Positions 1-9,617 of a DNA stretch of 64,000 nucleotides are shown in pieces (position 1 is the first letter of the stretch; each line of letters begins with the position of its first letter). Source of the stretch: Schmidtea nova (taxonomy: Eukaryota); assembly GCA_044892505.1 (NCBI GenBank), contig CM097883.1, forward strand, positions 183,706,001 to 183,770,000. Reading direction: 5' to 3'. The translations under genes and the position numbers were made by a program. The notes under the pieces are model-generated. The model was not told where the DNA came from. It was given only the letters and a program-made list of their open reading frames with translations, and made no database searches.

Positions 1-540
1 GATTCAATTCATTCAAAAGTTTCAACATTTCAAGTGGTGTTTTCTTTGTCGGTAATGATCGCATTTCTTTTAGAAAAGTTCTCCACTGAATCCACTCATC
101 ACAGAGTTCATCAGTGACATCATCAGAGTAGAATTTCAAACAATTTCAAAGATTCCATTGTTGCAGTGCTGTTTTCATCATACGCAGTATAAAAAATAAC
201 AACGATCGTCGATTGCTTTATATGCTGCAATTCTACGGTTAAGATCGGTAACAAGTGAATCAATTATAACATAATAGGTATCAACTTTGAACTTCTCTTC
301 CCCCGTTAAAACAACAGCTGACTCATTGCTATCGTCTGCTCTGCGTTTTGGTTGACGTGCGCGTCTTGTTTCGAATTTCTTTTCTGAGCACAATTCTGCA
401 GCGGTATCTCGATAAAATTCAAATCTATTCCTCTGAGATGCTAGAAATTCCGACAATGACTTCAGTAGTCCTACTGCAGTACACAGATCCATTTTTTCTG
501 ATTGCAACAGCTGGCTTATATCATTTATGCGTTCCAGAAT
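1..540 (-). pseudogene. C-terminal part of outer ZMYM1/Tip100-type hAT transposase (frameshifted near 180, runs off window)
   Basis: Minus strand reads (ILE)RINDISQLLQSEKMDLCTAV...KFKVDTYYVIIDSLVTDLNRR; after a frameshift FYSDDVTDELCDEWIQWRTFL. It joins in frame to the 7160-8011 segment once the inner element and one TSD copy are removed. Confidence 0.85.
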
Positions 541-1103
541 TAGAGCATCTAAACCGGTTAAAACCGAAACCGGTTAACCGGTTAATCGGAGGTTTTTTAA
601 AAAACCGTAAACCGGGTTATTTTACACGGTTAACCGGTTTTTCCAATTATTTAATTAAATATAAAGAATATTCAGTTTTTATTCACACAGTTATAAATTA
701 CGCGCTCAACTCGAGGATTACATTCAAAATAGAAAAGGTGTCAACAAAAGTGCCATTTCTAAGAAACACTTATATGCCTTCGGTTCCGTTTCTAAGAAAC
801 ACAAAATATGCCTTCGGTTCCGCAGAAAGGTTCGTTCAGGTACTTTCTTTGGGAAAGGGTTAGCCAACTATCTATTGTTATGTTTTTCTACGACGCAAAG
901 CATAAATAAACTACAAAAATCAGTCGTTAATTTCACGTTGCGTTTGAAAGTTGTGTTTTGCTGACAAGAAGGAAATTAAAGTGATTTGGCAACCCGTGTC
1001 CATAATTGCAATCAACAAGTCTATCAGGTAATTAATATTACGTGTATTGCATGTTATAAGTGTATAGTCAAATAACAATTCATTTTTACCAATTTTATAA
1101 AAA

Positions 1104-1280
1104 AAATGTTATTTGTTATAAATATAAACTTAAATCAATATACTAATATGTTATATGTATGTGTATAGTTGAAATTAATATATTTATAAAATATTTTAGC
1201 AACCATAAAAAATGAATTCGAAAAAATCAAGCGTTTGGAGCTATTTTGACAAGGACATTACCACATAGACACCTAAATGT
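1104..1280 (+). repeat. Left copy of ~175-bp direct repeat (right copy 4759-4933) bracketing the viral/retroelement insert; contains the transposase start
   Basis: aaatgttatttgttataaatataaact...gacacctaaatgt occurs twice with scattered substitutions; both copies encode M..KKSSVWSYFDKDI. Confidence 0.92.
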
Positions 1281-1297
1281 AATACAGGTTGCGATAG

Positions 1298-4288
1298 TAC
1301 ACTATCTGTAGAACATATAGTTGGAAATTTATTGGACTTTCAGGAAGCAATTATTGGACAAAGGGACCTTTAAATCCTTACCTCGGATCTAGAACGGCTG
1401 AGAGCATCAGCATCTATCAGCCGTGGGAAAAGGAGACCGAGCTGCCGATTATTAAAAAGGAAATGAATATGAGGAGAGCAATTGGATGGTTTGTGGATAG
1501 AGACTCCAGTCCCGGAAGACTTATTTTCTCAAACCTCCTAGCTCTCACAGGAGAGGATTTGTCGGTGTCCGTATCAAATTTTGAACGAACAGAAAACCCT
1601 ATTCATAGGCTTTACTGCTCTCGCCAAAACAACTCGGGGCAGCCTGGAGTCTCTCCTAACGTCTTGAGACATATAATGGTAACGGCAGATCAGCTCGAAG
1701 ATCTGATCAAAACCAATTATGATTTTATGTATCAGTCTCTTTTGATTATGCAGAGGTGATGATGAAATTAGAGAAGATAAATACATCTAGAATTCACTAT
1801 CATATAAATTGTTTCACATGTCTAAGACCTATTGATTATTTCAAACTGAGTTCAGATATTGAGTATGAATTCCCAGATGTTTCACTTCAAATGAAACGGA
1901 TGGTTACATGTGAACTATCTTTGTTAAAAAGACTTCCCTTGATGCCAAAGTCCTATCAAATTCATATCAAATTAAGTTCTGAAGAACTTTCTTTTCATAT
2001 AGGAAAAAATCAAGGTTTTTTATGGGGACTTAAGGTGTATCACATCGAAAAGAATCTCTCTGACTCCTGCATATTTTCATACATTATGTGGAAGAAGATA
2101 CTGCCTAAAGAATACTTGTCCGGTCTTTTATTAGGATTTTTGAACGCCACCGTTCTGAATGCTTCAACTAGATGTTTCAGTTCAATGACTACTGAAGCTC
2201 AGATGTTGCTCAAAGGAAGTGTGTGGCACATCATTGACTGCTTCTTGTCTGATGTGAATATAGAGACGATGGTAGAGATAGAATCCTTTTATATATACTT
2301 CAAAAGTCAGAGATCAAACATCTGTGGCTGGTATCCTTAGAAAACCTTCTGACTTCTGATAAACCTCTTTCACTGATACAACTATACATATTTTCTGACC
2401 TAAGCTCTGATTATTTGAGTGTCATGTTCCAGCTTACGGAATACATGATGGACGCTTTTAAAGTAAAAACATTAAATGAACAGTCTCGAGTTAAAATAAA
2501 AATTGGGAAAAGACTTCTCAATGATTTAGAAGATATAGAGCTGGGACATTCCACAGATGCAAAGCAGGTTAGATTGAAAGAGGAGTTATCTCGCAGCATG
2601 TATCCAACAATTGTGTCAATACCCGTGGAATGCAGACATGCCTGTCAAGAGATTAAGATTCAACATACATTTATAGCACTCACACCAGAAGAACTGTTGA
2701 AGTCAGATAGGATAAAGACTTTCCCAGGATGCCAAGTACATGTAATAGAAATATATGATATTATTGGTCATAGAGTTGACCCTCATCGTTTTCGAGACAT
2801 AGAGAAAATTAAATCTTATATAAGCCCCTTAGGATCGGGATTAAGATTGATTCGTCTTTCTACTGGAGCTCAATATAAAATGCAATCTATATTGTTGAAA
2901 TGGAATCTGTCAGGGGATGGTCTATTCATGGGAGATGGCTCTGGCGGAATGTCGGCCATGTATTTAGAATGGGAGCGTGATACAAAGATCATATATAACA
3001 CTATGTATGAGTCGCATCCTGACAGAGGTAATGGTGTTTCATCTGGCACACCAGGAGCATTCCAAAGATTGAAAATATCCGATAGAAATAGATGCGTCAA
3101 CTTACATACCATGTGGCAAAATCCTTCTGATCTGAGTGATGAGTCGACATGGAAATATTTCATAAGAATTATAAATGAGAATAATTTGAATATCAAAGTG
3201 ATTGTTTGTGATGCTGAGATCAAAAATCCAGAAATGACAAGCAGTATAGAACTATTTCTTTTGAAATATCTGGAATTTATATTTAAAATCTCTGACAAGA
3301 AAAAAGAATTGCCCATTACCAACCATATAAGTAAAAGATTATTAATTTATAAAACATTCGGCAATAGAATTTGCGAAAATACTGAGTTTGTAGACTCTTT
3401 ATTGGGAATATTTGAAAAAGTGTACTTCTTTTTCCCTTTCGGACAAGGATCGCAGACCAGCGAAGTTTACTTGGTAGGAATTACTGATTCAGATGAATAC
3501 TTCAGTCCACGCAAACACTTCATATCTAATCTGTCAATACAACACCTTGTAAGATATATCACTCAGAAACAAGATTTAACATATGATTTGAAAAGAACAT
3601 CTGAGATGAATTACTCAAAGATGATAATAAATTATTCACAATTTATCCCATACAGTTCCACTACAGACGTAGCCATATTCTTGCAGGCTATAGGTATATA
3701 TACAGCGGGCGGTGCGAACGATTGGCTCAATCTGTTCTGACATATGCTACCAATAGAGGACATCCTCTAGGCATTCTATACATGATAGGAGGTCTAATTG
3801 GAGAGCAGTTAATTCCGGTCTGCCAATGGTACAACAGGTCTTCACTGGTTCCCTCAACAAGCCATCTATCTTACTTTTTATCTACTCTATACGGGCTCTG
3901 GTATTCTATAGTTTATCTCTGCAATTCAGAACTTTCTTATGGTTTCATAAATGAAAATTTTCAAGTATATCAAAAAGTAGAATTCGGTTTCGTTGAAGTA
4001 ACACATATGAATTAACCGAAAAGGTATAAAGCCTGGAGGATTTTATATGCCACCCTCTTGCCTGATGAAACTAAGACCATCAAAACTGTTTACATTGGAT
4101 CCGAAAGCTCACGAGCTCAAGAAGTCATAAGAATGATGTCTTGCCTCTATAAAGATACTAGATTCCAGAATAAGTCCTTAATTAATTCTGAAATTTGTTT
4201 CATAAACGAATTGTTAGCCAAGCATTATAGAAAATTGTCTATTGACATATTATTAAATAGAACAGGAATAAGTCCTTTTCCAGAGGAT
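1298..4288 (+). pseudogene. L: Endogenous viral element: rhabdovirus-like L protein (capping, connector, methyltransferase and C-terminal domains), frameshifted
   Basis: KGPLNPYLGSRT (GxxT), QPWEKE, IHRLYCSR (HR), GDGSGGMSA, RCVN..WQNPSDL....WKYF, VIVCDAE, LIYKTFG, SQTSEVY and C-terminal INELL...LLNRTGI are collinear with vesiculovirus L motifs as I recall them. Frameshifts near 1750, 2340-2415 and 3720; stop at 4013. Confidence 0.93.
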
Positions 4289-4758
4289 CAATGTAATCAC
4301 TGCCCAATAACTCAAAATGCTAGAAGAAACAAACATACGCACGTTTTAGAAAAAGTTAAAAATTTTTTTATAAACAAGGGATACCATGTTGATATTGAAT
4401 GCGCGCCCCGGGAGTAGAAACCACACTCAAACCAGACTTAATTATTAAAAGCTTAACTAACAAAAATATTCATATTGTAGATATTAAGGTTCCTTATGAC
4501 ATACAATCCAACTTTGATAATGCAAGAAAAGAAAACTACGATAAATACCTTAAACTTTCATTAGATACCGCTAAAATTAATAAATGTACAACCACCCTGT
4601 CAGCAATAGAAGTAGAAACAATAGGATCTTGGGATTGTGAAAATGATAAATACCTCAGGAAAATAGGACTAGGAGACACAGATATCAAATCACTCGCTAA
4701 AATATGTATGAAAGCAGCAGATACGGCTAGTTTTAAAATATATATGGATCATATTATT
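4289..4758 (+). mobile_element. 3' ORF fragment of an RLE non-LTR retrotransposon (NeSL/Utopia/R5-like endonuclease)
   Basis: CNHC..ARRNKH, KPDLII, IVDIKVPYD, ARKENYDKY, IGSWD..ND..L..IG, SFKIYMDHI; one frameshift near 4405. Confidence 0.88.
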
Positions 4759-4866
4759 AAATGTTATTTGTTATAAATATAAACTTAAATCAATAAACTA
4801 ATATATTATATGTATGTGTATAGTTGAAATTAATATATTTATAAAATATTTTAGCAACCATAAAAA

Positions 4867-6698
4867 ATGAAAAAAAAAATCAAGCGTTTGGAGCTATTTT
4901 GACAAGGACATTAACTCAGAGACACCTAAATGTCTTACATGTCGTAAAGATATGAAATGCAAAGAAGGATCGACATCGGCTCTCACAACACAATTGAAAA
5001 TTAAACCGGGCATTAGTTTAAAAAATATTGAAGAGTCAGAAGAAAATCGCGCAAAAAAGATGAAACGTCAATCAGGTGATATGATTAATTTTATGAAATG
5101 AGAGAGCTTGCCGAAATTTTTAGCGAAGTGTGCTGCATTTGATGGATTTTCCTTACGAGGAATTGTAAATTCAAGTGCAATTAAGGAATTTATCAATAGG
5201 CGGGGATATACGATGCCTCAACATGCATCAACTATTAAAAGTATGGTTGTAGATTTGTCTAATGAAAAAAAACTGGAACTCAGGGACGAACTTTTAAAAT
5301 TAACAAGAACTGGAACACGATTTTCTTTTACCGTAGATAAATGGACAAATATAAAATGTAAACGTTTTTTAAACTTGACTTTGCATGACACTAAAAATGA
5401 ATATAAATTAGGTTTAATGTATATTAAGGATACGTGCGATGCTTTTAATTTAAAACAAATATTACGGAAAAATTAAATGAATTTTATCTTAATTTAAAGA
5501 AAGATATTATAGCATCCACTCACGATGCTGCAGCAGTGATGAAAAAATACAGGAATTTAATTGGCATTAAAAGTCAACTTTGCTATAATCACGCTGTAAT
5601 GGAATTATTTTATAAAAATATTGATGAACGTGTACTTCCTCAAAATGACACTGAAAGTGATAATGAATCTGATGAATCATATGAAATTGATTATTTTAGT
5701 TTTAATGCAGATAAATCTGATAATAATCCGTGTATACACGATTTGCTAAAAAGCGTCCGTAAAATTATCCGATGTTTTAAATATTCTAGTGTAAGAAATT
5801 CTATTTTACAAAAATACGTTTAAGAACAAGAAAATAAGGAATTAGTTTTATTATTAGATTGTAAAACGAGGTGGAACTCCTTGACACCGATGATTGAAAG
5901 GTTTATTAAAATTAAGGAGTGTGTACGAAAATCTATTAAAGATATTAACCAGGAGTTTTTATATAATGAAATTAATTTTAATATATAAGAAAATATTGTT
6001 CATGTTCTGAAACCATTAGAAATTAGCGTTAAAGAATTAAGCAAAACTGATGCAACAATTTTAACGGCGGAAGGAGCATTTCAATTTTTATTTGAGCAGT
6101 TAAAATATATGAATCTCCGTTTAGTTCTGAAATGAGAAATTTATTAACTAAAAGAATATTAGAAAGACGCAATCAAAATTTAGTCACTTTGTTAACTTAT
6201 TTACAAACTACAGTGATTCCTAAAACAGTATTTAACTCAACTCAAGTATATATATCCAAAGCTTCCACAATTGCATACGAAAAACATTATAGGAAGGCTT
6301 TTCCCAAAAAACCTGATATAACAGAAACAGGCGAATCATTCGATGTACTTGTAAATAGAGACACTCACACAATTTCCTCAACTGTCATAACGGATCCGTT
6401 ATTTATAGAATTGCAAAAAAGCATATCTTCCATTATGACAGTTCCATGCCCGAAAGACATTTCGAAGGAATCATTGCAGTTAAATAAAGATTTCAAATCA
6501 TTTGAATCTACCAAAGAACGTACGCCAAATCTAGAAAAATTATATAAAGCATTATTAACGATTAAACCCACTTCAACTGCAAATGAACATGTATTTAGTG
6601 TTGCTAATAATTTTTGCACCAAAATTAGAAATTCTATGCACCACAATACACTTGATGCATTAGTTTTCTTAAAATATTATTTTTTAAATAATAAATAA
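4867..6698 (+). pseudogene. Inner hAT transposase (BED finger, DDE core, dimerisation domain), disrupted
   Basis: SSVWSYF..CLTC (BED), FSFTVDKWT..KRFLNLTLH, CKTRWNSL, TIKPTSTANEHVFSVA..LDALVFLK; several stops and frameshifts. Confidence 0.88.
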
Positions 6699-7159
6699 AA
6701 AAATGTGTGTTATTTTATTGTATAAGTAATAAGTATTGTATATTTCTATTTTTCTTACATTTTGATATTTGTGTTCATTATGATGAATTTTATTGTATAA
6801 GTAATAAGTATTGTAAATTTGTCTTTTATATTTTGAAATTTTTGTTCATTATGATGAATTTTGTTGTATATATTTTACAATGTACGTATAACTTCTCTTA
6901 TTCACCACCTTTGAAAACAAAAATAAAAGAATTATTTCCTCTTTTCGTGTTTCATTACCTATTTATATTTATTTATTATACCTATTTTTAAACAATCAAA
7001 CTATTAACATATAATTTTAACAAATGTTTACATTTTTTTTAATTTTGCAAATTACGTACTTGATTTTCTGAGGACAGTTTTAACCGGTTAACAGGTTTTT
7101 GATACGTAAAATACCCGAAAACCGGTTTGTACTTTTCCTCCGGTTATTTAGATGCCCTA

Positions 7160-8894
7160 TTCCAGAATGGTATTCCAAAAACACACCAAGAACACAGTTT
7201 CCAACTTATCCATGACATTCGCTAAATTTGTTGCTTCTGATCTCGTTTCTTTCTTTTGCAAACTGTTGCTGCCACTTTCTTGCAAAACAGATTGGTAGGT
7301 TTTATAGTGCTGATACATACTTCGTAGTGCAACAGCATGAGCAGACCACCGCGTGTCACTGAACCGTTTTGGAAGTAGTGCAGACTTTGACTTATCCGTT
7401 CCGATTACCTTTCGGCTGACAGCATCTTTGACAAGATTCCATCTATATGTCGAATCAGACAAGAAAACATAAATGTTCTGAACAAATCCGAAAAATGCAA
7501 CTGCCTCAATGCAAGCGTCAACAGCTGCAACCCCAGACAGATTCAGTGAGTGTGCCATACAAGGAATATAGGACGCCGTTTTTATGATTTCAATTATACG
7601 TGCCTGTACACCAGAATATTGTCCAGACATATTGCTGGCATTGTCGTATGTCTGACCTCTGCAGTCATTTAAATCAATATGAAGATCGCGAAAAGTTTCA
7701 ACAATTGTATCGAAGAGATGAAGACCGGTGTGTGACGAAATTTGAACAAATTTTAGAAAACGTTCAACAGGTTGGCCATTACTTTTCATATAGCGAACCG
7801 TGAAAGTTAATTGATCTGTGTGTGATATATCAGGCGTAGAATCAACACTGAAGGAAAAGTACTTTGCCCTTTTTAATTCATCAATAATACCTTTGGTGAC
7901 TTTTCTGGCCATAAGACCCACAAATTCTTCATAAGTAGTGGATGATAGGTATGATGTGATGCCATGTCCAGCATTTCCATGTGTCAATATGTTCCGCAAT
8001 AAATGAATCATATTCGGCTAAATACTCCAAACAACCTAAAAAGTTTCCATTATCTGCACTTCCAAAGGTTTCTGAAGATCCTCTGAGTGATAATCCACAC
8101 GATATGAGGAATTTTATTGTAGAAAAAACTCTCTTTAAAACTTCTCTCCAATAATGTTTTTGTTTCACAGCGTGCTCCCAAATTGATTTGTCCAAAGTCT
8201 GAACATTGGATATACGCGTTGCATAAGTGGGTAGAGCATATCTGTGATCAGCTGATTTTTCGTGTTGTTCAAGTCGATTTATGGTACTCCAGCTGTCAAA
8301 TCCTGTAGTCGCAAGAGCAGACGAACTGTTTATCGAAAACAGTTTACATACAAAATAAAAAACGCATCCAGATGATGGCGAATACAAAAGCCAATGCCTT
8401 TGAATTTTTTCTCCATTGTGAGATTGTGAGTAAAATGCTGAATCATTAAGTTTTCTGTTACAATTGGTATATTTCCTTAACGAATTTGCATAAACTCCTT
8501 CACGGTTTGCACACGCATTGGGCCCAGTGTGAAGCCAATAATTCACAAGATTACTATCCAGTACATTCCAAAAGGCTGGATCAGTTACAGAAATAATATC
8601 ATGTTTAGCAGTGTCAAACAAAGTTAGCGTATTTACGATTGATTCAGCCAGGATGATATTTAGTTGTTCTGATGAAGAAGTTATTTCATCAAAATCGTTT
8701 TCTTGCGGCGAAACATCTGTTGCAGATGAACTTTGTAGTAATTTCTCAGTATCAGCTAATTTTATTTCAACGGATTCACTATAAGTTTCAGATCTTTTAA
8801 CAAACTTATCGATTCCGCCACGTTGCAGTTCTGCCGCCTTTTCAAAAAGACGTTTCTTTTGGCGTTTTTGTGCGCCAGATTCAAATTTTTTCAT
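7160..8894 (-). pseudogene. N-terminal part of outer ZMYM1/Tip100-type hAT transposase (TTF zinc finger, DUF4371-like region)
   Basis: MKKFESGAQKRQKK, WLLYSPSSGCVFYFVCKLF, HEKSADH, LSLRG..GNFL, YFSFSVDSTPDISHTDQLT, CRGQTYDNASNMSG, PCMAHSLNL, DTRWSA; frameshift near 7980. Confidence 0.92.
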
Positions 8895-9617
8895 GGTTTA
8901 ATAGTAAATGTTAATTATTGTTAATATTAGTGTTAATAATAATATTATTGATAATAATGTTTTTAAAAATAATTATAATATACTATTATGTAATTTTGTG
9001 TGACGGTCATATTTAACTTATATTCGAATTTTAGTCTTGTAGACCCTCCAACGGCCACACAAAATATTTAAAAAAATCTCTAATCTAGCAAAGCATGAAT
9101 GAATGCGGTGAAAAGAAAGTAACATTCTACTACGCCGGTTAGATAATCTCAAGAGAGCGAGGCTAGAAGAATGTTATAATGCAATGATTTAGTAACACAT
9201 GTGGGATAAATATCGGATTCCTTGTCTAAATACAATATGTCAAGTTATTTATCTCCTATAACCAGATATACAGATATAAATTGTGGTAGTATTCAGTTGA
9301 CTGAAGAAAGTTTCAAGTTTCCAGATATAATTATATGCTGCGCCAACGATGCCAACGATCGTATGCCCATCACCCGGTCTGCTCAAATACAATCGGGTAC
9401 ATACATGCTACTAATGCCTACAGCCATGGACTCTATATCATAATATAGGAGTCCATGCTACAGCTTATCTTAATACAGATATGCATCTTGATCCGACTGT
9501 AAGGGATACAAGGCTTATCTGGCTATATCATCTTGCATAAAATAATAAGAACCATATATTTTTGTTCTATTTTATTTTAGCCGACAAATATTGTAAATTT
9601 GTTAATTTCATAGTAGG

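Follow-up and report, generated by a model that had tools for sequence, protein, structure and literature searches.

In a 64,000-nucleotide stretch of the Schmidtea nova genome, hereafter the window (assembly GCA_044892505.1, contig CM097883.1; G000:C2:183,706,001-183,770,000, within a 1.25-Gb genome), a fragment of a rhabdovirus L gene is joined directly to a piece of a retrotransposon that lacks long terminal repeats (non-LTR) and carries a restriction-like endonuclease (RLE), and this chimera lies between two copies of a duplicated segment of a hAT-type DNA transposon. The chimera is real. Its most probable origin, to which we give a probability of about 0.68, is one retrotransposition event by a NeSL-like element, with a template jump onto viral RNA. 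The viral fragment (1281-4293) and the retroelement piece (4294-4760) are both on the plus strand and in the same sense, with the foreign RNA 5' of the retroelement. To their left stands a 177-bp copy of the hAT 5' leader and the start of its zinc-finger coding region (1104-1280, plus strand), and to their right a 175-bp copy (4759-4933, plus strand) that runs on into the remaining hAT. The original prediction, made from the letters of the window, had placed such a chimera between two copies of about 175 bp of the hAT 5' region, and this arrangement was borne out.

The rhabdovirus L fragment

The 3' half of an L gene is found in mRNA sense at 1281-4293, in agreement with the roughly 3 kb of L read there beforehand. 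The fragment runs from about amino acid 1140 to near the C-terminus and shows, in order, the capping (Mononeg_mRNAcap, PF14318, E 4e-26), connector (PF21080, E 6e-12) and methyltransferase (PF14314, E 3e-43) domains in Pfam searches, followed by the C-terminal domain. It contains the motifs GSRT, IHRLY and GDGSGG, which we take to correspond to the GxxT, HR and GxGxG motifs of L. The best match in the PDB was the L protein of vesicular stomatitis virus (E 4e-29), and in a quick tree the fragment grouped with two unnamed proteins (SH-aLRT 99) on a long branch, at 29% identity. Its closest relatives are rhabdoviruses, with a genus not assignable. About four frame changes (near 1340, 1750, 2340 and 3700) interrupt the gene, as do two stops, one of them at 4013, and PF00946, the RNA-dependent RNA polymerase domain, was not matched at this locus; hence we call it a fragment. 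It is present as a single copy in the assembly, where ten other matches, mostly short, are 65-89% identical to it.

The original prediction had named retroelement identity of 4060-4288 as a ground for abandoning it. Positions 3698-4270 align to the C-terminal domain of the L protein P0011 (amino acids 1947-2125 of 2149, E 7e-18). Two C-terminal open reading frame (ORF) pieces match a profile built from 79 L C-termini (E 1e-9 and 2e-8), the best retroelement control frame scoring E 0.8. Hence 4060-4288 is L and not retroelement. That L reaches its C-terminus was only partly correct: the C-terminal domain is there, but L meets the join without having reached a stop of its own, 8-9 codons past the C-terminal TG motif, whereas 44 of the 79 L relatives have 5-56 residues (median 32) after that motif.

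The retroelement piece and its joins

The L/RLE join lies at 4293/4294. All listed matches to the retrotransposon family but one begin at 4294, and the match ends at 4755-4760. The 467-bp piece starts within a CCHC knuckle, comprises the second half of the knuckle and the endonuclease, has one frame break near 4410 and ends about 20 codons short of the ORF stop. It is therefore an internal fragment rather than the retrotransposon tail that had been supposed, and comparison with eight of eight full-length copies places its end 1170-1207 bases short of the family 3' end. The caveat that the 3' untranslated region (UTR) is absent was justified, as the whole 1.2-kb 3' tail is missing together with the poly(A). 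Among the matches listed, 4294-4760 has at least 39 other genomic copies, 83-91% identical. Sequence of the RLE type made up 389 of 300,000 bases in 30 evenly spaced background loci, and it is so sparse that a chance L/RLE join is unlikely.

L does continue in frame into the endonuclease at the join, as had been observed, but L itself is not one frame, a frame match has a 1-in-3 chance of arising and the fused ORF has only 133 amino acids. A functional L-endonuclease fusion was ruled out: this ORF holds half a knuckle, is broken on both sides and gives no meaningful PDB or Pfam match. The in-frame fusion is due to chance and has no function. Among the datasets listed as containing the locus there was none of RNA, which speaks neither for nor against expression.

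A weak 7-base near-repeat spans the L/RLE join. It bears on an explanation in which the viral and retroelement RNAs were first joined as RNA, by ligation or recombination, before this same family retrotransposed the product. RNA ligation is one route proposed for U6/LINE-1 chimeras (10.1101/2025.02.02.635956). Both partners at our locus end internally, as cleaved RNAs would, and the long duplication is accounted for equally well. However, the near-repeat resembles the re-copying of 10-11 bases seen at the 5' joins of two family copies described below, a polymerase signature, although 4% of random joins would show a match of this kind, and no source locus for a fused transcript was found, L being single copy. 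We consider prior joining as RNA unlikely.

At the 3' join the retroelement piece and the right repeat have two bases, AA, in common, and an A-run of the target (1099-1106) contains the start of the repeat. At the 5' join the last codon of the hAT is TGT (Cys). Two other L inserts in the genome read C-x-I-G-C at this place, so the junction TGT was probably common to virus and hAT.

Private changes amount to 9 of 395 positions (2.3%) in the RLE piece and 13 of 563 (2.3%) in the hAT, a matching decay that is consistent with a single event. The divergence between the two repeat copies (9 of 176 columns) agrees with these ages. The closest family copies, L046 and L047 (C3:39.84-39.85 Mb), are 91% identical to the piece and form an inverted pair; both stop matching the family about 30 bases beyond the breakpoint in the window. 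One could suppose two insertions instead, the retroelement arriving first with its long duplication and a viral cDNA entering its 5' part later, with deletions trimming both. Deletions after insertion would account for the lost tail, and the place where L046 and L047 part from the family fits such a history. Yet the decay levels of the parts agree, and the approximately 17 L loci found in 1.25 Gb would have had to strike a target class that makes up about 0.13% of the genome, which makes this sequence of events highly improbable. Spread of the insert by the hAT was also considered and was not seen, as the insert is single copy.

The target duplication and its support in the assembly

Aligned over 176 columns, the segment 1104-1280 and its repeat at 4759-4933 differ in 9. 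Other hAT copies (the best 14 of at least 39) have the segment once, 14 of 14, and it runs straight into the sequence found 3' of the right copy, as had been predicted for empty hAT sites. At six columns both repeat copies carry the same non-majority letter, and five of these six letters occur in none of the 14 other hAT copies. Among the 91 pairs that these copies form, 79 have no non-majority letter in common and the maximum is four. The single segment in all 14 copies and the six locus-specific letters common to both repeats indicate that the duplication was made at this locus, as expected of a canonical target-primed insertion. A repeat already present in the hAT family is thereby rejected, and the letters of the repeats place the duplication after the onset of hAT decay.

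Read support came from four runs of one study, which contain 81-85% of the words; one run may be the assembled sample. Contigs from independent runs bridge the hAT/L join (1280) in four of four runs and the L/RLE join (4293) in three of four, with 0-3 differences and even depth, and one 3178-base contig spans 1222-4394 with two differences. Among the pieces listed (394 further pieces are not shown), no contig bridges the 3' join (4760), so the check on junctions was satisfied at two of three. An assembly artefact that joined a viral or contaminant contig to repeats would be favoured by the repetitive nature of both flanks and by the unbridged 3' join. Against it stand the bridged joins, the stops and frame changes in L and the nine columns at which the repeat copies differ, which exclude false duplication by the assembler, and we regard an artefact as extremely unlikely.

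The NeSL-like family and its long duplications

Full-length copies of the family are about 8 kb long and contain a long first ORF, a degenerate Ulp1-like region, a reverse transcriptase (RT), the CCHC knuckle, the RLE, a 3' UTR and poly(A). In the full-length copy L175, ORF2 matches RVT_1 (E 7e-33) and zf-RVT, and its best PDB matches are R2 proteins (E 5e-51), which makes it an element of the RLE type. The Ulp1-like region gave no direct match to PF02902 and aligns to seven of the eight PF02902-bearing relatives tried (E 6e-10 to 6e-4); it keeps His-Trp and Asp and has an altered Gln/Cys motif. The original prediction had assigned the element to the NeSL/R2 group. The RT, CCHC knuckle and RLE agree with this, but the protease-like domain is degenerate and membership of NeSL is only partly supported. 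Judged by these domains, the element is best described as NeSL-like and is not a proven member of NeSL.

The two family ORFs (about 1190 and 1115 amino acids) are in frame and separated by one TGA followed by CTAG (L175:5129-5135; G000:C2:324,927,642). TGA-CTAG is kept in 14 of 14 pattern-matched copies and in the divergent L046, and the neighbouring codons vary. UGA-CUAG is a strong readthrough context, and the in-frame stop sits at what is presumably the place of a Trp in Ulp1 proteins. It is accordingly a candidate programmed readthrough signal. A literature search found no readthrough case of this sort for a non-LTR element.

Insertion sites were examined at 32 loci, found through the 3' end of the family or its endonuclease piece, a few of them with the 5' or 3' end out of view. 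Six loci (L163, L168, L170, L192, L195 and L197) have one common 3' flank, a degenerate tandem repeat, and most others differ; these six point to a partial target preference. A scan of five family loci and one sister-family locus against Rfam gave no match, and thus no sign of a spliced-leader, U2, tRNA or rRNA gene as target. More than 15 copies, nearly all on one strand, lie in the first 600 kb of C2 (G000:C2:30,000-600,000) and may represent either a subtelomeric array or a segmental duplication.

The family was guessed to make duplications of more than 100 bp, and two copies showed them. L173 is flanked in the assembly by a 688-bp duplication with one mismatch (L173:5223-5910 and the downstream flank in L157) and L176 by a 262-bp duplication without mismatch (L176:8245-8506 and L160), each abutting both ends of the element. 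Both are truncated at the 5' end, carry a poly(A) tail and match a full-length copy at 99.6-99.8% identity, and their 5' joins show the re-copy of 10-11 bases. The target of L176 is a repeat, and the segment is present once in seven of seven other copies of this target repeat examined. L195, of a sister family that has only the last 200 bases in common, is flanked by 90 identical bases of degenerate repeat (L195:5856-5945 and 9023-9112). Long duplications were found only around 5'-truncated copies (3 of 32 loci). The original prediction had pointed to long target duplications in R9, and the published length is 126 bp (PMC6895275); those of 688 and 262 bp are longer.

Other L inserts in the genome

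For all 18 other L pieces tested, the 500 bp beyond each end were free of RLE sequence (three RLE families; the L065/L066/L072 cluster excluded), and a general RLE route for viral inserts in this genome is not supported. The loci L065, L066, L072 and L101 form an amplified mosaic (L072:3337-6460, L066:4408-6310), situated close to the ends of C1 and C2 and also on C139. It combines the 5' part of an R2-family element with a rhabdovirus L fragment and, in opposite sense, a piece derived from rRNA. L (amino acids 598-800) stands there in the same sense inside a deleted R2-family element, with the rRNA-derived piece between. A spacer of about 210 bp separates L from R2 sequence in L072 and is 93% identical, in opposite sense, to a stretch that is assigned to large-subunit rRNA by Rfam; L072 itself gave no direct Rfam match. 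L066 also contains a secondary copy, with repeats of 70 and 35 bp, and where R2 and L abut directly, in L066 and L101, this seems to result from a later deletion. We do not count this cluster as a second clean capture, on account of the spacer in L072 and the later rearrangement. An RLE tail at L076 was rejected as a capture, as it lies 800 bp upstream of L without a join between the two.

Around the other L inserts no target duplication could be established cleanly, as their repeats lie inside L or inside rearranged clusters or are 84% alike. This is relevant to the possibility that a free chimeric viral cDNA, formed by template switching off the chromosome, was pasted into a break and that repair synthesis made the duplication. 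Chimeric viral-retrotransposon DNA does form in infected insects, with LTR elements (PMC5857290). Such repair needs no tail, and both outer joins of our chimera have overlaps of 2-3 bases. Nevertheless, a duplication of this kind is not established for the other viral inserts, while ordinary poly(A)-tailed family copies have duplications of this size class, and we think an origin by repair improbable.

Two side observations were made at these loci. At L076:4200-5275 (minus strand) an L fragment 67% identical to ours lies just after an apparent DNA-transposase zinc-finger start, without a long duplication. L097:5186-8260 (minus strand) holds an open R2-type ORF of 1025 amino acids (zinc finger, Myb-like, RT, RLE), with a long TAA microsatellite ahead of it and 28S-like fragments nearby.

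The host hAT and the rest of the window

The host hAT is broken and extends from 541 to 7159 on the plus strand, with terminal inverted repeats at 541-553 and 7147-7159 and a Pfam match to Dimer_Tnp_hAT at 6096-6695. Among the matches listed it has at least 39 other genomic copies, 88-95% identical. Its target duplication is 9 bp (532-540 and 7160-7168); the usual length for hAT elements is 8 bp. It is nested inside an outer DUF4371 (hAT-like) transposase (7157-8897, minus strand; Pfam DUF4371 for two ORFs), which by position probably continues at 178-573 (minus strand), in an ORF with no Pfam match. Elsewhere in the window, ORFs at 30881-34954 match integrase and ankyrin (30881-32347) and fibronectin III (33164-34951). 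A strong A-skew was observed at 31-36 kb and 54-64 kb, where long minus-strand ORFs have no Pfam matches.

A proposed model for the capture

The original prediction proposed target-primed reverse transcription that began on retroelement RNA and jumped to L RNA. It is supported in part: no refuting test that it named went against it, and the tail and poly(A) that it would lead one to expect are absent. In the model that we favour, the element endonuclease would have nicked the already decayed hAT at the A-run (1099-1106), and the RT, after copying retroelement RNA, would have switched to a piece of viral L mRNA or antigenome at its broken 3' end and copied 3 kb of it. The cDNA would then have joined the far side of the target at the TGT probably common to the virus, with a second nick about 175 bp downstream, like those of the family copies with 262- and 688-bp duplications. 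With 0-2 base pairs the R2 RT is able to engage an RNA 3' end, and it jumps on reaching the 5' end of a template (10.1101/2021.04.30.442027). The 1.2-kb tail may be missing because an RNA piece without it served for priming, by way of the 2-base AA overlap, or equally because it was deleted later; tail-less retrocopies with duplications are known to come from internal priming and are hard to separate from later tail loss (PMC5322556). The insert would afterwards have decayed neutrally, and it encodes nothing functional.

Several observations weigh against this model. The piece lacks the ORF end, 3' UTR and poly(A) of a canonical target-primed insertion, and the 3' UTR is the part bound by R2 proteins to start priming (PMC13580325). 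L has neither its stop nor its gene-end, so it was not the intact end of an mRNA to which the RT would have jumped. With no family copy closer than 91% identity, the donor subfamily was not found intact. No long duplication was seen at the other 29 of the 32 loci, which include 11 full-length copies. To these are added the unbridged 3' join, the absence of RLE sequence near the 18 other L pieces and the rearranged and ambiguous R2/rDNA cluster, whose association with L is suggestive only. Retroelement machinery is involved whether one supposes a template jump, RNA ligation or repair with a chimeric cDNA.

Comparison with known systems

The locus is like U6/LINE-1 and other RNA/LINE-1 chimeras in having foreign RNA 5', truncated retroelement 3', the same sense and one target duplication (10.1101/2025.02.02.635956). 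It differs from them in its viral partner, its RLE-type element in place of L1, the absence of a 3' tail and a duplication of about 175 bp versus 7-19 bp; the main text of that work contains neither 'virus' nor 'viral'. Like the insect viral DNA and non-retroviral integrated RNA virus sequences (NIRVS) associated with LTR retrotransposons, it is RNA-virus sequence reverse transcribed by a retroelement, with template switching proposed (PMC5497376, PMC5857290). In NIRVS, however, Ty3/gypsy and Pao elements are enriched and non-LTR elements depleted (3.9% near NIRVS versus 12.8% genome-wide; same sources), whereas here the partner is an RLE non-LTR element, directly joined. The viral mRNAs mobilized by LINEs in mammals also combine an mRNA-sense viral gene with a target duplication, but they have poly(A) and no retroelement piece (PMC2987831). 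The statement that published captures mostly involve LTR elements holds for invertebrates (PMC5497376, PMC5857290), other inserts reportedly showing no hallmarks (PMC2987831).

With R9 of bdelloid rotifers our family has in common an RLE element and an unusually long target duplication (PMC6895275). R9 is rDNA-specific, whereas the NeSL-like family has mostly dispersed targets and variable lengths (none seen, 262 and 688 bp; 90 in the sister family). Like the NeSL clade (NeSL-1, Utopia, R5/LIN), it has an Ulp1-like region before the RT, a CCHC knuckle and an RLE (PMC4640811). Unlike that clade, it has a degenerate protease motif, a long upstream ORF ending in an in-frame UGA and a poly(A) tail, and no U2 or spliced-leader target was found for it; Utopia duplications are 0 or 20 bp (PMC4640811). 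Our literature search, which covered titles and the openings of abstracts with subscription journals outside it, found no viral insert fused to an RLE element, and a prior report is possible.

Entry of non-retroviral RNA viruses into invertebrate genomes has mostly been inferred from nearby LTR elements, and insect inserts were reported to be devoid of integration hallmarks (PMC2987831, PMC5497376), with none of the LINE kind found for any insect insertion in PMC2987831. The present locus retains integration hallmarks and points elsewhere, to a non-LTR element of the RLE type. As a single event in a single genome, it shows that such a route exists but says nothing on its frequency. More tentatively, and with well under even confidence, we propose that the NeSL-like family cuts the second strand hundreds of bases away from the first, relies on UGA-CUAG readthrough for its RT and links broken RNAs one after another at the insertion site, which would give invertebrates an LTR-independent germ-line route for RNA-virus sequence, marked by giant target duplications. 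Of the steps of non-LTR integration, second-strand cleavage is understood least (PMC6895275). This family, with young, near-intact copies and duplications ranging from none seen to 688 bp, makes it testable and is of relevance to genome engineering based on R2.

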